DNA from: Chlamydiota bacterium
GTDB lineage: Bacteria; Chlamydiota; Chlamydiia; Chlamydiales; RGXB01
DNA: 51,498 nucleotides
Assembly (NCBI GenBank): GCA_947494155.1
Contig: CANLTW010000010.1
Coordinates: 1 to 51,498, forward strand
Direction: 5' to 3'
Each line of letters starts with the position of its first letter. Positions within the stretch are counted from its first letter, which is position 1. Below are positions 1 to 4,934 of the stretch, in pieces. Both the position numbers and the translations under genes were made by a program. Below the pieces are notes generated by a model. The model saw only the letters and a program-made list of their open reading frames with translations. It ran no database searches and was not told where the DNA came from.

Positions 1-307
1 TTTTTTGCACCTTTTGGTCTAAAAGATCTACGGCGATCTCGTCGTGCTCGATGTATTCGGTGATTAAGATCCCCCTTTTGGGATCAAAAAAATAGGGGCG
101 TGGAGCGATATGGGTATTTTCCAGCTGTTTCAGTACAGAATACTCCACCTCCTGGCTCGAGTAGAGCTCTTTCAATAGATTTGACGACAGGCGGAAAAAA
201 TAGCTCTCTCCCCCTTTTTTTACCTGATAGTTGGTGTTCGTCGCCGCTAACTCCAATAAACGTTTTGGATACTTAGGATGATCTTTTAAAACACCTTCGA
301 TCATCTC
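1..307. repeat. direct repeat (paralog duplication) of 1813-2119
   Basis: Base-by-base match, e.g. ttttttgcaccttttggtctaaaagatctacggcgatctcgtcgtgctcg at both 1 and 1813; divergence increases toward 307/2119. Confidence 0.95.
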
Positions 308-427
308 ATCATAGCCGAGATAAAAGCCCCAATCTTGAAAAAGCTGTTGCTCCTCTGGAGTCTGGGTATTTCCCGCATCGATTTCTAGAAAGTTCGGTCG
401 CGAAACGGACTGCGGTACACCTCGCAA
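1..427 (-). CDS. choline/ethanolamine kinase-like (APH superfamily) phosphotransferase, second paralog; runs off window edge, start uncertain (TTG 427 or ATG 304)
   Basis: nt 1-307 is a near-identical copy of 1813-2119 (offset 1812, same frame). Manual translation gives ...MIEGVLKDHPKYPKRLLELAATNTNYQVKKGGESYFFRLSS...; the frame is open from 568 to 1. Not in the ORF track because it is truncated. Confidence 0.8.
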   Translation of the reverse strand, partial: MRGVPQSVSRPNFLEIDAGNTQTPEEQQLFQDWGFYLGYDEMIEGVLKDHPKYPKRLLELAATNTNYQVKKGGESYFFRLSSNLLKELYSSQEVEYSVLKQLENTHIAPRPYFFDPKRGILITEYIEHDEIAVDLLDQKVQK

Positions 428-1256: not shown

Positions 1257-2209
1257 CAACAAGCCCCTCCCTGATCGGTTTCAAATTTCTCTATCCGCTC
1301 CATGGCTGCCAAAAAAAACAGATCTCTCCATTCTTTATAGGGGCTATTCGTAGAGGGGTTTTCCATCTGCAGATGGCACCAAGCTGTCCAAAAAAGGTCG
1401 GATACGATCCGATAAAGAGCCATGCAATCCCTATCTTGTTGAGTCGGCCGGTCCGTGTAGTTGCCCAAAATCTGCCACATCATCTCATCAGACCAGCGCT
1501 CAATCGAGGCCATCGATGCAAGGGTGTGATAGGGGTGGCTCATCGCTGCATACTCCCAATCGATAAAAAAGAGTCTATCCCCTTTTCTTAAAATGTTCTT
1601 GTGGTGCAAATCCAGGTGGCATAACGTTTTTTTAGGATATTGCTCCAACTTTTTGGAGATCTTCATTAGTGCTGAAAGGGCTTTTTCATGAAACCCTTGA
1701 GGCAAGGGGGCTACTGCTTTTTTAACCAGTGCAAGCGTTTCCAGATAGGGATGAAACACTCTGTCAACATCAAGTTTCTCATTTTCAACCCGCTTAAGCA
1801 TATCGCACACAGTTTTTTGCACCTTTTGGTCTAAAAGATCTACGGCGATCTCGTCGTGCTCGATGTATTCGGTGATTAAGATCCCCCTTTTGGGATCAAA
1901 AAAATAGGGGCGTGGAGCGATATGGGTATTTTCCAGCTGATTCAGCACAGAATACTCCACCTCCTGGCTCGAGTAGAGCTCTTTGAACAGACCTGACGAC
2001 AGGCGGAAAAAATAGCTCTCTCCCCCTTTTTTTACCTGATAGTTGGTGTTCGTCGCCCCTAAATCTAAAAGACGTTTTGGATATCTCGGGTCGTCTTTAT
2101 AAACACCTTCGATCATCTCTTCAGCCCCTTGGAAGTCTGCTCTAAGAGGCACCATGCATAAAGAAAAAAAGACCAAACAGAGGAATGGGAACTGGTGAAA
2201 CTTAAGCAT
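1256..2209 (-). CDS. choline/ethanolamine kinase-like phosphotransferase (APH/ChoK superfamily) with signal-peptide-like N-terminus
   Basis: GATNTNY glycine-loop region, Brenner motif CHLDLHHKNIL, IDWEYA motif. N-terminus FLCLVFFSLCMVPLRA. 8-nt overlap with the upstream stop. Confidence 0.85.
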   Translation of the reverse strand: MLKFHQFPFLCLVFFSLCMVPLRADFQGAEEMIEGVYKDDPRYPKRLLDLGATNTNYQVKKGGESYFFRLSSGLFKELYSSQEVEYSVLNQLENTHIAPRPYFFDPKRGILITEYIEHDEIAVDLLDQKVQKTVCDMLKRVENEKLDVDRVFHPYLETLALVKKAVAPLPQGFHEKALSALMKISKKLEQYPKKTLCHLDLHHKNILRKGDRLFFIDWEYAAMSHPYHTLASMASIERWSDEMMWQILGNYTDRPTQQDRDCMALYRIVSDLFWTAWCHLQMENPSTNSPYKEWRDLFFLAAMERIEKFETDQGGAC

Positions 2210-4934
2210 GATAAAAGACTTTGGTTGGGGTTTTGTTGAGGTAGTTTTCCAACCGCTTTTTCGCCTCGAGATCTATTTCCGTAAGCGTTGCCGACTCCCC
2301 CTGGATCTCAGGATCAATATAGCGGAGTTTACGCAAAACGGGGGGGCGACCATTGCTATCCAAGGAAGATCCTTTGAAAGTTGAGGAGCCAATCGCCTCA
2401 AATTCGGCCTTGTGAGGGCTATTTTTGATGATCTCAAGGAGCTCTTGTTCGGTTTTTTCGAAGTCTTCCTCTTTGAGGTGCCCCTCGTCGAGCAATTTTT
2501 TTAACAAAGAGGTAAACGCAACAGAGGCGGCCTCCACTTTGGGATCAAAATAGACCTCTTGGTTGACCTCTAAAAATTTATCAAAAAGGAGCCTTGCGGT
2601 CGCCACGTCCCGACATTTAAGGCGCTCTTCGTCGAGAACGATGTTATTCAAAATAAGGGAGTACTCGGGCTGGAAGATTTTCCCTACAGCTTTTAGATCG
2701 CGGATCATGTAGTCGAGTCGATCTACATTAATTCCCCTCTTTTCAAAAAACCTTGTCCCCCCTTCTTGAAGATCAGAAAGGGAAATACCGCAGTCGAGCA
2801 ACTCCTTTTGCACCCATTTTTGGGATAAAAAGCGCTCTCTATGTTTTTCGTGGTAGTCCTGCATTTCATGTCCGTATACAAGGTCGATCAGATGGGAAAA
2901 GGGGGTATGAGATACATCATGCAGAAGAGCTTGGATCTGCTCAAGCTCTGAGGCTCCGAGCATTTTTGCTAAAGCCATAGCTCCCACTGAGTGCTCATAG
3001 CGCGTTGTGGTTTGCCTCGGATCCACGAGATAGGCGATCCCGTTTTGGTGGATATTTTTAAGCCTTTCCATCAAAGGCGAGGCGAGAATTTTTGCGATCT
3101 TGGGGGAAACTTTTGTAGGGCCGTAGATCGAATCGATCACCATAGGGGTCTCCTTAGCTGTTGTGGAGAGGGTTTTGGGTTGCAAGCTGCGGCTGTTGTT
3201 GCGATAGATGGTAATCCCTTTCATGTTTAAAGCACTAATGGCAGATTGAAACACCTCATCCACCTCCTCAACGGTGGAATTTTCGACTAAATTTACCGTT
3301 TTGGAAATCCCCTCATCCGTATGACTTTGAAAAGCAGTGGTCATATGCAATTGGTCTAAGGGGGGCATCTCCAGGGCTGTCCTGTAGATCCGTTTGATCG
3401 AAAGCGGAAGTTCCGATTGTTGGAGGCTTCCGGTTTTTTCAATACACGCATATACTGCGCCCAAATCTTGAAAATACCCCTCCTCTTTTGCCTGTTGTTC
3501 TATCGTTTTTTTAAATTTTTCATCCACAACAAGAGAAAACGGGGGCTCAATCGATGCGGTCACGCCAGCCATCAACGAGCTTCTTCCGCTTGGAGGGATG
3601 ATAGTAGTGGAAAGGTTGCGTATCCCCACCTCTCTGATCTGTTCTCCTAACAGCTCCCAATCCTTCTCATTGGCCCGATTCGTGGGTGTTTTTTGAAAAG
3701 GTTTGGTGAAAAGATCGATACGGGTAGTGGCATGTTTAAAAGCAGGAAAAGCACCCCGCTTTTTTGCAAGCTCAACAGAGGCTTTCTTACTTTCCAAATT
3801 GATAAAGCTCATCAACTCTTTTGCGAAATTTTGTGCCTCAGCAGAACCGTAAGGGATTTTTTTTGCCTGCAAAACCTCTGAAAAGCCGCAGATTCCGATC
3901 CCAACTCGTCGTAAATTCGAGATCACTTCGGCGCTCTGTTTTGTCGGCATTCTGTCGATATTCACCTCGACAGCATTATCCAAAATCAGCATCGTAGTTT
4001 GAATGCTTTCTTTGAGAGCATCCCAATCGATCTCCCCTTTTTCCAAAAACCGGGGGAGATTTAGATAGGAGAACTGGCATACCTCACCCGAAAACAGCGA
4101 CACCTCGCCGCAAGGAACGACCGTTTCATAGCGACCCATATGCGGTACGCGATTCAGTCGATTGATCCGATCCATAAAAATGAGGCCAGGGTCACCGGTA
4201 GCATGCGCGTGCTCTGCAATGAGGCTCATGAGCAACTGAGGATCGACTTTCTGACCGTTACTTAATGTAAAAGGCTCTTTATTTTCTAGCGATTGGATAA
4301 AAGCATCGGTGATATTTACCGACAGATTGAACTTCCAGTCCTTGATGTCAGGGCTGTCTTGCTTGACACGAATAAAAGAGAGGACCTCTGGGTGGTGAAT
4401 AGATAATACACCCATGTTTCCACAAGAGCGTTCGATCATCCCCTTTTGCACCTCAGCCATAGCCACCTGATTCAGATAGCGGACCATCTCGGCTGGCTGG
4501 GCGACATCATCAAGGCAGAAGCCGGTTCCCATCCCCCTGGTGTGGTAATCCCCCACCATTTGGGCAATCTCTTCTCTTTTCATTTTCGATAAATTTACTG
4601 GGGGAATCGAGCAAGCTGATACACTTTTTTCCCGCCTGCCCGCATTGGTGAGCATAGGACTCCCCAAAATTACTTTAAAATCTGCTACGGACCTTAAAAA
4701 CTTATAGTGCCAGTTTGCAGCCTCTTGAGTGCCATAATATTTTTTACCCGCATCGGCTAAAAATTTAGTCGAGCGATTAAAAACTTCAAAGACCTCCTCA
4801 TTCTTATCCGCCAGTTTGTTGGTGTGTAAAAAGTCGGCTAAATGTTGCCCCGAATTCAGGATACGCGATCTGCGCAAGTACTCGGTAACGTCGCGGCAGT
4901 GGTTTTGACAAATGTTTTTAAAAACTGAGTTCAT
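2202..4934 (-). CDS. nrdJ: class II (adenosylcobalamin-type) ribonucleotide reductase-like domain (aa 1-~592) fused to a C-terminal HD phosphohydrolase domain (aa 598-910; YdhJ/SAMHD1-like)
   Basis: RNR motifs: SPMLTNAG, SAC (C108), PCGE (C275/E277), C286, RRVGIG, GIRN..T.IPPSG, ISKTVN, KGITIYR..SR..Q; no class I YY pair. HD motifs: RLK.IHQ.G, RYEHS, LLHD, FSH, DYHE, DRLDY..RD. Confidence 0.9.
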   Translation of the reverse strand: MNSVFKNICQNHCRDVTEYLRRSRILNSGQHLADFLHTNKLADKNEEVFEVFNRSTKFLADAGKKYYGTQEAANWHYKFLRSVADFKVILGSPMLTNAGRREKSVSACSIPPVNLSKMKREEIAQMVGDYHTRGMGTGFCLDDVAQPAEMVRYLNQVAMAEVQKGMIERSCGNMGVLSIHHPEVLSFIRVKQDSPDIKDWKFNLSVNITDAFIQSLENKEPFTLSNGQKVDPQLLMSLIAEHAHATGDPGLIFMDRINRLNRVPHMGRYETVVPCGEVSLFSGEVCQFSYLNLPRFLEKGEIDWDALKESIQTTMLILDNAVEVNIDRMPTKQSAEVISNLRRVGIGICGFSEVLQAKKIPYGSAEAQNFAKELMSFINLESKKASVELAKKRGAFPAFKHATTRIDLFTKPFQKTPTNRANEKDWELLGEQIREVGIRNLSTTIIPPSGRSSLMAGVTASIEPPFSLVVDEKFKKTIEQQAKEEGYFQDLGAVYACIEKTGSLQQSELPLSIKRIYRTALEMPPLDQLHMTTAFQSHTDEGISKTVNLVENSTVEEVDEVFQSAISALNMKGITIYRNNSRSLQPKTLSTTAKETPMVIDSIYGPTKVSPKIAKILASPLMERLKNIHQNGIAYLVDPRQTTTRYEHSVGAMALAKMLGASELEQIQALLHDVSHTPFSHLIDLVYGHEMQDYHEKHRERFLSQKWVQKELLDCGISLSDLQEGGTRFFEKRGINVDRLDYMIRDLKAVGKIFQPEYSLILNNIVLDEERLKCRDVATARLLFDKFLEVNQEVYFDPKVEAASVAFTSLLKKLLDEGHLKEEDFEKTEQELLEIIKNSPHKAEFEAIGSSTFKGSSLDSNGRPPVLRKLRYIDPEIQGESATLTEIDLEAKKRLENYLNKTPTKVFYHA

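Follow-up and report, generated by a model that had tools for sequence, protein, structure and literature searches.

We analysed a 51,498-nucleotide stretch of DNA from a Chlamydiota bacterium (contig CANLTW010000010.1 of assembly GCA_947494155.1; hereafter the window), in which a single 910-residue open reading frame (ORF), P0001, joins a ribonucleotide reductase (RNR)-like barrel to a SAMHD1-type HD phosphohydrolase domain. The RNR-HD fusion is real and no assembly artefact. Judged by its residues, the barrel belongs to a large, apparently undescribed and divergent RNR-like clade and not to the canonical class II enzymes, and pairing with a phosphohydrolase is the rule for that whole clade, the fusion being one form of it. 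We tentatively read P0001, with rather less than even confidence, as a two-step accessory enzyme that would convert a ribonucleotide into a dephosphorylated deoxy (or otherwise modified) nucleoside. Both domains come from known superfamilies; the clade, its pairing and the fusion are what appear to be undescribed. The fusion comprises the following features:

2202-4934, minus strand: P0001, fusion of 910 amino acids, RNR-like barrel plus SAMHD1-type HD domain (stop-free ORF, Pfam, homologues, AlphaFold2)
3180-4934, minus strand: RNR-like domain of P0001, residues 1-585 (Pfam, homologue alignment, Foldseek)
3204-4496, minus strand: Pfam Ribonuc_red_lgC (PF02867) match, residues 147-577 of P0001
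2205-3143, minus strand: HD domain of P0001, residues 598-910, putative SAMHD1/dNTP-triphosphohydrolase type (homologue alignment, PDB matches)
2826-3002, minus strand: Pfam HD (PF01966) match, residues 645-703 of P0001

The 910-residue frame contains no stop, and Pfam recognizes both of its halves, with Ribonuc_red_lgC at E 4.7e-74 (250 bits; cut-off 23.9) and HD at E 7.6e-5 (23.4 bits; cut-off 22). The same architecture is common to 31 protein clusters (P0006-P0036), whose coverage of the 910 residues is at least 84% and whose identity ranges from 41% to 91%, and it is found at 10 genome loci (L004-L013). A contig from an independent run (X3, 3074-3830) spans the domain junction (approximately 3137-3182) with 0 differences and no gap; among the four compared runs, indels occur only at positions 442, 518 and 2163. 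The fusion is not an artefact because the clusters, the loci and the contig across the junction all carry it, and the first-pass annotation, which had proposed a single 910-residue RNR-HD protein with an intact HD domain and had singled out the junction as the place to check, is borne out on both counts. An AlphaFold2 model of P0001, built with 26 homologues, has a mean predicted local distance difference test score (pLDDT) of 89.4 and a predicted template modelling score (pTM) of 0.86, with low confidence only in the linker at residues 584-594. The fusion is rare among named genomes: its full-length form occurs in 5 of 300 sampled Chlamydiota genomes, namely all 4 of the window's genus and 1 from another family.

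The barrel finds its best sequence match in Thermotoga maritima NrdJ (phmmer E 7e-57), and Foldseek, run on the predicted model, places chains of the same enzyme at the top (template modelling score 0.80 on the target, E 2e-32, against approximately 1e-25 for class I RNR). It scores below the curated models, at 363.3 bits against a cut-off of 399.95 for NCBIfam TIGR02504 (NrdJ_Z) and 365 bits against 961 for NF006417. We aligned P0001 and its relatives with the canonical NrdJ matches out of the same search. The radical cysteine and the glutamate on the finger loop are C275 and E277, and the redox cysteine pair is C108 and C286, aligned with the canonical positions; all four residues are invariant in 26 fused homologues. 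The catalytic asparagine is replaced by V272 (VPCGE), likewise invariant in the 26. In the relatives the finger motif reads (A/P)PC(A/G/S)E, against NPCGE in the canonical matches (P0050, P0116-P0119), and throughout the clade CQF takes the place of the canonical CNLG at the second redox cysteine. Both phosphate loops of the clade carry an extra arginine (NAGR and PP(S/T)GRS). According to the consulted part of PMC8365446, the motifs PNSP and PAGR mark specificity for nucleoside diphosphates (NDP) and triphosphates (NTP), respectively; neither is found in the P0001 alignment, in which P0001 has LGSP and most relatives PSTP.

Between the GxGTGF motif and the next helix, the clade has a deletion of 14 residues, and the loop that follows is altered. 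The segment probably corresponds to loop 1 of the allosteric specificity site in the Escherichia coli and T. maritima structures. Lastly, the redox tail is missing: no cysteine lies within the last 40 residues of P0001, and unfused relatives end a few residues past the barrel's last strand motif, with neither a cysteine pair nor a Cys-rich domain. In class II enzymes, such a C-terminal pair or domain mediates turnover, as described in the consulted part of PMC5704485. On its sequence, the barrel therefore fails four defining traits of class II enzymes: the asparagine, the C-terminal redox tail, the phosphate motif and the score against the curated models. Set against T. maritima NrdJ (PDB 1XJE, 1XJN, 3O0N), P0001 shares the ten-stranded barrel, the finger-loop cysteine and glutamate and the two redox cysteines, but has no asparagine, no PNSP or PAGR and no redox tail, carries CQF for CNLG, and shows the extra arginines and the 14-residue deletion. 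The V272-type loss of the asparagine could be offset by the glutamine directly after the second redox cysteine (CQF). In a quick maximum-likelihood tree, 56 clade members split from 4 canonical NrdJ proteins and the genome's own NrdA along a branch of 1.1 changes per column (Shimodaira-Hasegawa-like approximate likelihood-ratio test, SH-aLRT, 100). Eleven fused proteins form one group within it (support 100); P0036, the most distant fused protein, falls among the unfused ones.

The HD part, in turn, retains its metal-binding and catalytic residues: across an alignment of 26 full-length homologues, no change is seen at H648, H672-D673, H676, H681, D684, H695, D738 or D741. Among solved structures, it matches 2HEK at E 5e-13 (amino acids 5-252 of the 314-residue part, 248 residues), followed by 6PWY (Caenorhabditis elegans SAMHD1-like, 5e-11), 2Q14 (1e-9) and SAMHD1 (3e-8). 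With SAMHD1 and the bacterial deoxynucleoside triphosphate (dNTP) triphosphohydrolases (PDB 2HEK, 2Q14, 6PWY), it has in common the N-terminal motif block, the H...HD...D ligands together with additional histidines and aspartates, and a length of approximately 310 residues; it differs from them in being placed behind an RNR-like barrel. We therefore class it as SAMHD1-type and as a putative dNTP triphosphohydrolase. Stand-alone HD homologues of 343-387 residues are found in other chlamydiae.

The barrel has many relatives that lack the fusion. One scan of metagenomes, queried with 28 aligned unfused members, found 269 relatives, and 79 loci were kept. The Asn-less motif is present in 78 of the 79, the ORF of the last being broken, and the same fraction has the cysteine and glutamate of PC(G/A/S)E and the cysteine of GE.CQF. 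Asparagine is retained in 0 of the 78 metagenome relatives and in none of the fused set. Clade members, as little as 28-43% identical to each other, occur in Chlamydiota, Bacillota, Patescibacteria, a gammaproteobacterial metagenome-assembled genome (MAG) and others, and automatic annotation calls them 'hypothetical' or 'HD domain-containing'.

To describe their neighbours, Pfam was run on the two nearest ORFs per side (231 non-identical ORFs), and counts were made by hand over the 78 loci, identical twins being counted alongside their twin. A NUDIX gene lies within two genes at 28 of the 78 loci (at one more, NUDIX is fused), a CYTH gene at 23 and an HD gene at nine; at least one of the three is present at 55 of 78. 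Small P-loop kinases (Thymidylate_kin, AAA_17/18/28 or Guanylate_kin) accompany 32 of the 78, and APH kinases and PfkB-NUDIX fusions three each. Some clade members are themselves fused to NUDIX domains (P0051, P0055 and P0090), and NUDIX genes also lie within two genes of the unfused members at L014 and L015, both in chlamydial MAGs, and at L017, in an unclassified MAG. Behind the unfused relatives at L021, L022, L067 and L099, we found separate HD genes whose products align with the P0001 HD domain over 187-313 residues at 34-37% identity (E 1e-44 to 1e-58); the separate HD gene at L018 is 24% identical. Given these adjacent separate genes, the chlamydial protein unites two genes that stand side by side at other loci.

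The surroundings of individual relatives follow the same pattern. In the Bacillota MAGs L018 and L019, a 562-residue RNR-like gene is directly followed by the separate HD gene and preceded by an abutting PfkB kinase gene, with Ham1, DHH, deaminase and dNK/Tmk-like kinase genes nearby. At L020, in a Woesebacteria MAG, a PfkB gene shares an overlap with the RNR-like gene, after which come genes for a deaminase and for a member of the purine-nucleoside-phosphorylase family. The general idea of the first-pass annotation, an RNR-like enzyme working with phosphohydrolases and kinases, thus receives strong support from relatives in other phyla. At L049 (7756-9281), the genes behind an unfused RNR-like gene encode, in this order, a protein of the nucleoside 2-deoxyribosyltransferase family and an APH-family kinase, which hints that deoxynucleosides may be handled downstream of clade members. 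L099, where the HD gene is directly downstream of the RNR-like gene, also has a RuBisCO-large-subunit-like gene (3984-5273) two genes upstream of it, with a Tmk-like gene between. Phosphohydrolase fusions exist on canonical class II enzymes too, as seen in P0050, a 1577-residue canonical NrdJ (NPCGE, Cys-rich tail) with a Ham1/ITPase-type domain (PF01725).

P0001 is an extra enzyme beside a housekeeping RNR. Contig C2 of its own genome encodes a canonical nrdA (640 bits, 1066-residue frame) followed by nrdB, the separate nrdAB whose presence the first-pass annotation had left to be checked. Another RNR accompanies the clade member in 5 of 6 other genomes: two class III genes in G001, a class III gene in G002, a canonical PF02867 gene plus class III in G004, nrdA in G005 and a second NrdJ-type gene in G359. 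Within a sample of Patescibacteria, clade-level matches (at least 580 bits) occur in 2 of 121 genomes, so the clade is not the general RNR of that group. Some Patescibacteria have 3-5 tandem NrdJ-type genes per contig, each seen as a pair of matches over N- and C-terminal parts (G316:C12:15397-23399, G393:C46:267-8275, G329:C1:781952-787600 and G395:C6:15570-21076).

As to the source of the radical, neither a PduO- or CobA-type adenosyltransferase nor a PF02310 B12-binding protein was found in the 97.6% complete genome of P0001. Adenosyltransferases occur in 2 of 5 other clade-member genomes, of the PduO type in G359 and of the CobA type, with one internal TGA, in G003; none was found in 4 of the 6 clade-member genomes, P0001's own included. 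The 'class II/B12-type' label of the first-pass annotation did not survive these results: the protein falls short of the NrdJ cut-off (363 against 400 bits), has no asparagine, and its genome shows no adenosyltransferase and no PF02310 protein. 'B12-type' is thus a label by similarity, although ready-made adenosylcobalamin (AdoCbl) may be taken up.

On the minus strand, P0001 is followed by P0002, P0003 and P0004, giving an order of four genes; P0005 lies on the other side of the fusion:

1256-2209, minus strand: P0002, choline-kinase/APH-like kinase of 317 amino acids with a Sec-signal-like N-terminal presequence
549-1256, minus strand: P0003, adenylate-kinase-like nucleoside monophosphate (NMP) kinase with a signal-like presequence and altered NMP-site motifs
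2-455 (long ORF 2-427), minus strand: P0004, second choline-kinase-like paralogue, cut by the contig end, without a signal sequence
5013-6191, minus strand: P0005, eukaryote-like Ser/Thr protein kinase, a neighbour outside the conserved cassette

P0002 starts inside the last 8 nucleotides of the fusion gene (ATGCTTAA), and P0002 and P0003 share a TGATG overlap, with the ATG of P0003 at 1254-1256 behind a GGGAGGGG stretch. By these overlaps, P0001 is predicted to be translationally coupled to the choline-kinase-like and adenylate-kinase-like genes. Both overlaps had been reported in the first-pass annotation, as had the run of a ChoK/APH-like, an Adk-like and a second phosphotransferase gene, which Pfam matches and the paralogue P0004 confirm. 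The three genes, with stops and starts overlapping or abutting, recur at L004-L010 and L013, that is, at 8 of 9 fused loci with downstream DNA, so the co-occurrence of both kinases with the fusion also stands; the Adk-like gene is missing in L012, and L011 is cut. The cassette is kept down to 52% identity, and nothing else around it is conserved among the compared loci.

By its sequence, P0002 fits the choline/ethanolamine kinase (LicA-like) family. It scores 38.2 bits with PF01633 (cut-off 29) and has the motifs HLDLHHKN (H-x-D-x4-N) and IDWEY. Of 300 genomes scored, the 5 with the fusion were the only ones to yield orthologues of at least 42% identity, and distant homologues (23-32% identity) turned up in 24 chlamydial genomes without the fusion; the evidence from co-occurrence is thin because the 5 genomes represent two lineages only. 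P0003 scores 102 bits with PF00406 and has a Cys4 lid; with TIGR01351 it reaches 143.8 bits, below the cut-off of 168. Its paralogue, the housekeeping adenylate kinase on contig C8 (138.5 bits), has no presequence and keeps the motifs GKGTQ, TGD, PRT and RxDD, which are altered in P0003.

Unlike LicA (4R77) and adenylate kinase, the chlamydial pair begins with signal-like presequences. These are 21-30 residues long and present in 9 of 9 ChoK-like and 8 of 8 Adk-like orthologues. They have 1-2 basic residues, pass into a core so hydrophobic that its best Kyte-Doolittle mean over 11 residues is 2.1-2.9, and often close with an Ala-x-Ala-like motif directly ahead of the conserved domain. Their letters vary among orthologues; their character is kept. 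Such features suggest that both kinases are Sec-exported, and exported kinases cannot supply a cytoplasmic reductase. If they are indeed exported, the relay envisaged by the first-pass annotation, from nucleoside through NMP and NDP to reduction, fails in its order; its assignment of the first kinase as a nucleoside kinase is not supported, P0002 being closest to a choline kinase.

We propose that the barrel of P0001 would act on a ribonucleotide's ribose by thiyl-radical chemistry, most likely in a 2'-reduction that spends its own cysteine pair, and that the fused HD domain would strip the phosphates at once. The net product would be an unphosphorylated deoxy- or ribose-modified nucleoside plus (tri)phosphate, and not a DNA precursor. 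In other bacteria, the same two steps would fall to separate adjacent genes, with an RNR-like gene next to an HD, NUDIX or CYTH gene and usually accompanied by one for a small P-loop (d)NMP kinase. Chlamydiae would add two Sec-exported kinases, and any re-phosphorylation by these would take place outside the bacterial cytoplasm. We favour the two-step reading because the residues for radical chemistry and reduction are kept and because the HD, NUDIX and CYTH partners all attack the phosphate chain. What the analysis shows is the architecture, the conserved residues, the accessory status, the phosphohydrolase pairing and the signals for export; the reaction, the substrate, the radical source and any link between the kinases and the product we infer.

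Several observations weigh against this proposal. The closest solved relative of P0002 is the pneumococcal choline kinase LicA (4R77, E 7.6e-21), and the APH genes at L049, L052 and L083 are not similar to P0002. The kinases would be extracytoplasmic, the operon being their one tie to a nucleoside product. The genome yielded no deoxynucleoside kinase of the dNK family, so a released deoxynucleoside would have no obvious cytoplasmic use; dUTPase and ThyX are encoded there, so a role in thymidylate supply is not needed. All residues of ordinary reduction except the asparagine are kept, and the barrel may therefore be a normal RNR. G003, a Woesebacteria MAG of approximately 1.2 Mb (completeness not given), showed no RNR homologue besides its clade member, which points to that member as a true RNR.

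The last two points lead to an alternative in which P0001 is an ordinary second RNR, class II-like and fed with host AdoCbl, that together with a dNTPase forms a pool-balancing RNR/SAMHD1 homeostat, the kinases being unrelated passengers. The best sequence and structure match to T. maritima NrdJ, a TIGR02504 score of 363 bits just under the cut-off, the retained radical cysteine, glutamate and redox pair, the glutamine of CQF, which might replace the lost asparagine, and the situation in G003 all speak for it. We nevertheless consider it unlikely, as no clade member seen has the asparagine (neither any of the 78 metagenome relatives nor any fused protein), there is no C-terminal cysteine pair or Cys-rich domain, PNSP and PAGR give way to LGSP in P0001, the 14-residue deletion falls where loop 1 of the allosteric specificity site probably lies, 4 of 6 clade-member genomes show no adenosyltransferase, and constant pairing with a phosphohydrolase is foreign to canonical RNR genes. 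At the other extreme, the barrel could be catalytically dead and regulate an HD dNTPase by sensing nucleotides. The loss of the asparagine and redox tail would fit, and inactive RNR homologues are reported in herpesviruses; the invariance of the radical cysteine, glutamate and redox cysteines across a clade of 28-43% identity is hard to explain without catalysis and makes this reading highly improbable.

A different view of the two exported kinases detaches them from nucleosides altogether: outside the cytoplasm, the ChoK-like enzyme would phosphorylate choline, ethanolamine or another small alcohol with host ATP, and the Adk-like enzyme would rebalance ATP, ADP and AMP, the pair doing no more than sharing a transcript with the fusion. 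This concerns the kinases only, is compatible with the other readings, and seems to us doubtful, if well worth keeping in mind. It draws on the kinship of P0002 with the pneumococcal enzyme, its above-cut-off PF01633 match, its H-x-D-x4-N and IDWEY motifs and its distant homologues in the 24 genomes without the fusion; it has to contend with a gene order and overlapping or abutting codons kept to 52% identity, and with orthologues of at least 42% identity found only beside the fusion, the latter being thin evidence from two lineages. Conversely, the kinases may be central. A rewired barrel would then produce an unusual nucleotide, a chain terminator or signal, which the HD domain disarms inside the cell; the nucleoside would leave, and the exported kinases would re-activate it in the periplasm, inclusion or host cytosol, as a self-protected pro-nucleoside system that defends the host against viruses or manipulates it. 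The altered active site, the obligatory phosphohydrolase, the translational coupling, the signal sequences on both kinases, NMP-site motifs in P0003 that differ from the housekeeping copy, P0002 orthologues strictly with the fusion (5 of 5 genomes) and an effector-rich region marked by eukaryote-like kinases and an F-box protein would all suit it. Still, non-chlamydial Thymidylate_kin matches start approximately 5-22 residues in, mostly 5-11, so that a signal would have hardly any space, if any, and the export logic is chlamydia-specific; no PADLOC model matches any part, many relatives lie among housekeeping genes and not in defence islands, and both redox cysteines are kept, as plain reduction would need. 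We regard such a system as distinctly unlikely. Bolder still, and by a shade less probable again, the Asn-less clade would supply no DNA precursors and be a new family of RNR-fold radical enzymes, perhaps cobalamin-independent and without allostery, whose product always passes to a phosphohydrolase, and which in chlamydiae would act as a self-protected pro-nucleoside factory against co-infecting viruses or the host.

Three further candidates were rejected. The class Ø clade of Burnim et al., in the consulted part of that work a phage- and phototroph-rich set of minimal RNRs, offered no matching features as a home for P0001. A thymidylate branch, with a UTP/CTP reductase, a pyrophosphatase and Tmk, is needless here given dUTPase and ThyX; we keep it as a sub-case of the two-step reading, and it is attractive for relatives with Tmk-like neighbours. 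A known defence system was also considered: PADLOC-DB 2.0 returned 0 families for P0001, P0002 and P0003, and 0 for the tested unfused RNR-like, HD, AAA_28 and CYTH partners; among the 9 proteins scanned, matches were obtained only for a NUDIX partner (L050:7752-8198) and for P0005. The genomic setting of the clade is in many cases one of SecA, GreA and tRNA synthetase genes and not a defence island; a few relatives adjoin AbiEii, PemK, GmrSD or NYN genes, and most do not.

Parallels with known systems are of a general kind. The oxetanocin and cordycepin pathways pair an HD phosphohydrolase with a radical or redox enzyme to process a phosphorylated nucleoside, and the likeness of OxsA/OxsB and Cns1-3 to P0001 appears to be one of logic only. 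No Pfam match to a radical S-adenosylmethionine (SAM) or B12-binding domain was obtained in P0001 or its neighbours, PF02310 was not found in the genome, and the solved structures closest to the HD domain are SAMHD1-type proteins, so that these analogies, drawn in the first-pass annotation, do not carry over. Prokaryotic viperins are radical enzymes that act on the nucleotide ribose and are encoded beside nucleotide kinases. They would differ from P0001 in having a radical SAM fold where P0001 has an RNR barrel, and P0001 is without a PADLOC match. We found no description of the RNR-HD fusion, the Asn-less RNR clade or the pairing with phosphohydrolases in the full-text literature, subscription journals being outside its coverage, and to this extent the fusion is undescribed, as the first-pass annotation had supposed. 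The consulted parts of bioRxiv 10.1101/2022.04.23.489257, PMC9669993, PMC8365446 and PMC5704485, supplements aside, make no mention of them, and a Protein Atlas search returned generic RNR clusters only.

The host of the cassette is an uncultured freshwater chlamydia. The window is contig C10 of a 24-contig, 1.41-Mb assembly, and near-identical DNA occurs in freshwater and lake metagenomes, with 14 DNA runs containing at least half of the sampled words, the source run of the window possibly among them. Contigs from metatranscriptome libraries (X16 and X17) touch the Adk-like, ChoK-like, HD and RNR parts, which demonstrates presence only and neither transcription nor a common operon transcript. 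P0004 has an ATG-GAT-CCC start (MDPL...) in 427-455, shifted by one base from the frame of the long ORF 2-427. If the T-run near 442 were one T longer, the product would read MDPLFTPPASL..., as in both L004 paralogues, and the X2 contig from another run has exactly one extra base behind position 442; the discrepancy stems either from a homopolymer error in the assembly or from a genuine frameshift or a difference between strains. In the spacer between P0003 and P0004 (518-528), there is an eight-G run on the minus strand, one base longer in run X2.

Beyond the cassette, the region looks rich in candidate host-directed effectors. Close to the cassette are P0005, which matches LegK1 weakly, and an F-box protein (5013-6191 and 10344-11429, respectively). 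A P0005-type gene is found upstream of the fusion only in L004; in L012, two further Pkinase genes, unrelated to P0005, lie close to the fusion (L012:6284-8682). Just upstream of the P0005/fusion block, three overlapping sugar-nucleotide genes occupy 6448-8649 on the minus strand and are RmlD-like, cytidylyltransferase-like (PF01467) and GDP-mannose-4,6-dehydratase/epimerase-like. The window also encodes a 654-residue protein with a jacalin-like lectin domain and a C-terminal DnaJ domain and a Legionella_OMP-family outer-membrane protein (15938-17902 and 19234-20259).

RNRs are among the best-studied enzymes, and to our knowledge the Asn-Cys-Glu triad, the C-terminal redox shuttle and allosteric control of specificity are held to be universal for classes I and II. 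Here, a widespread clade lacks the asparagine and the redox tail, and probably some of the specificity site as well, but its radical and redox cysteines are retained. Its reaction, once solved, would reveal either ribonucleotide reduction without supposedly essential parts or a new radical modification of nucleotides. In the chlamydiae, kinases with predicted export signals in a conserved cassette point to phosphorylation of nucleotides or small molecules outside the bacterial cytoplasm, which would bear on how these energy parasites handle host metabolites.

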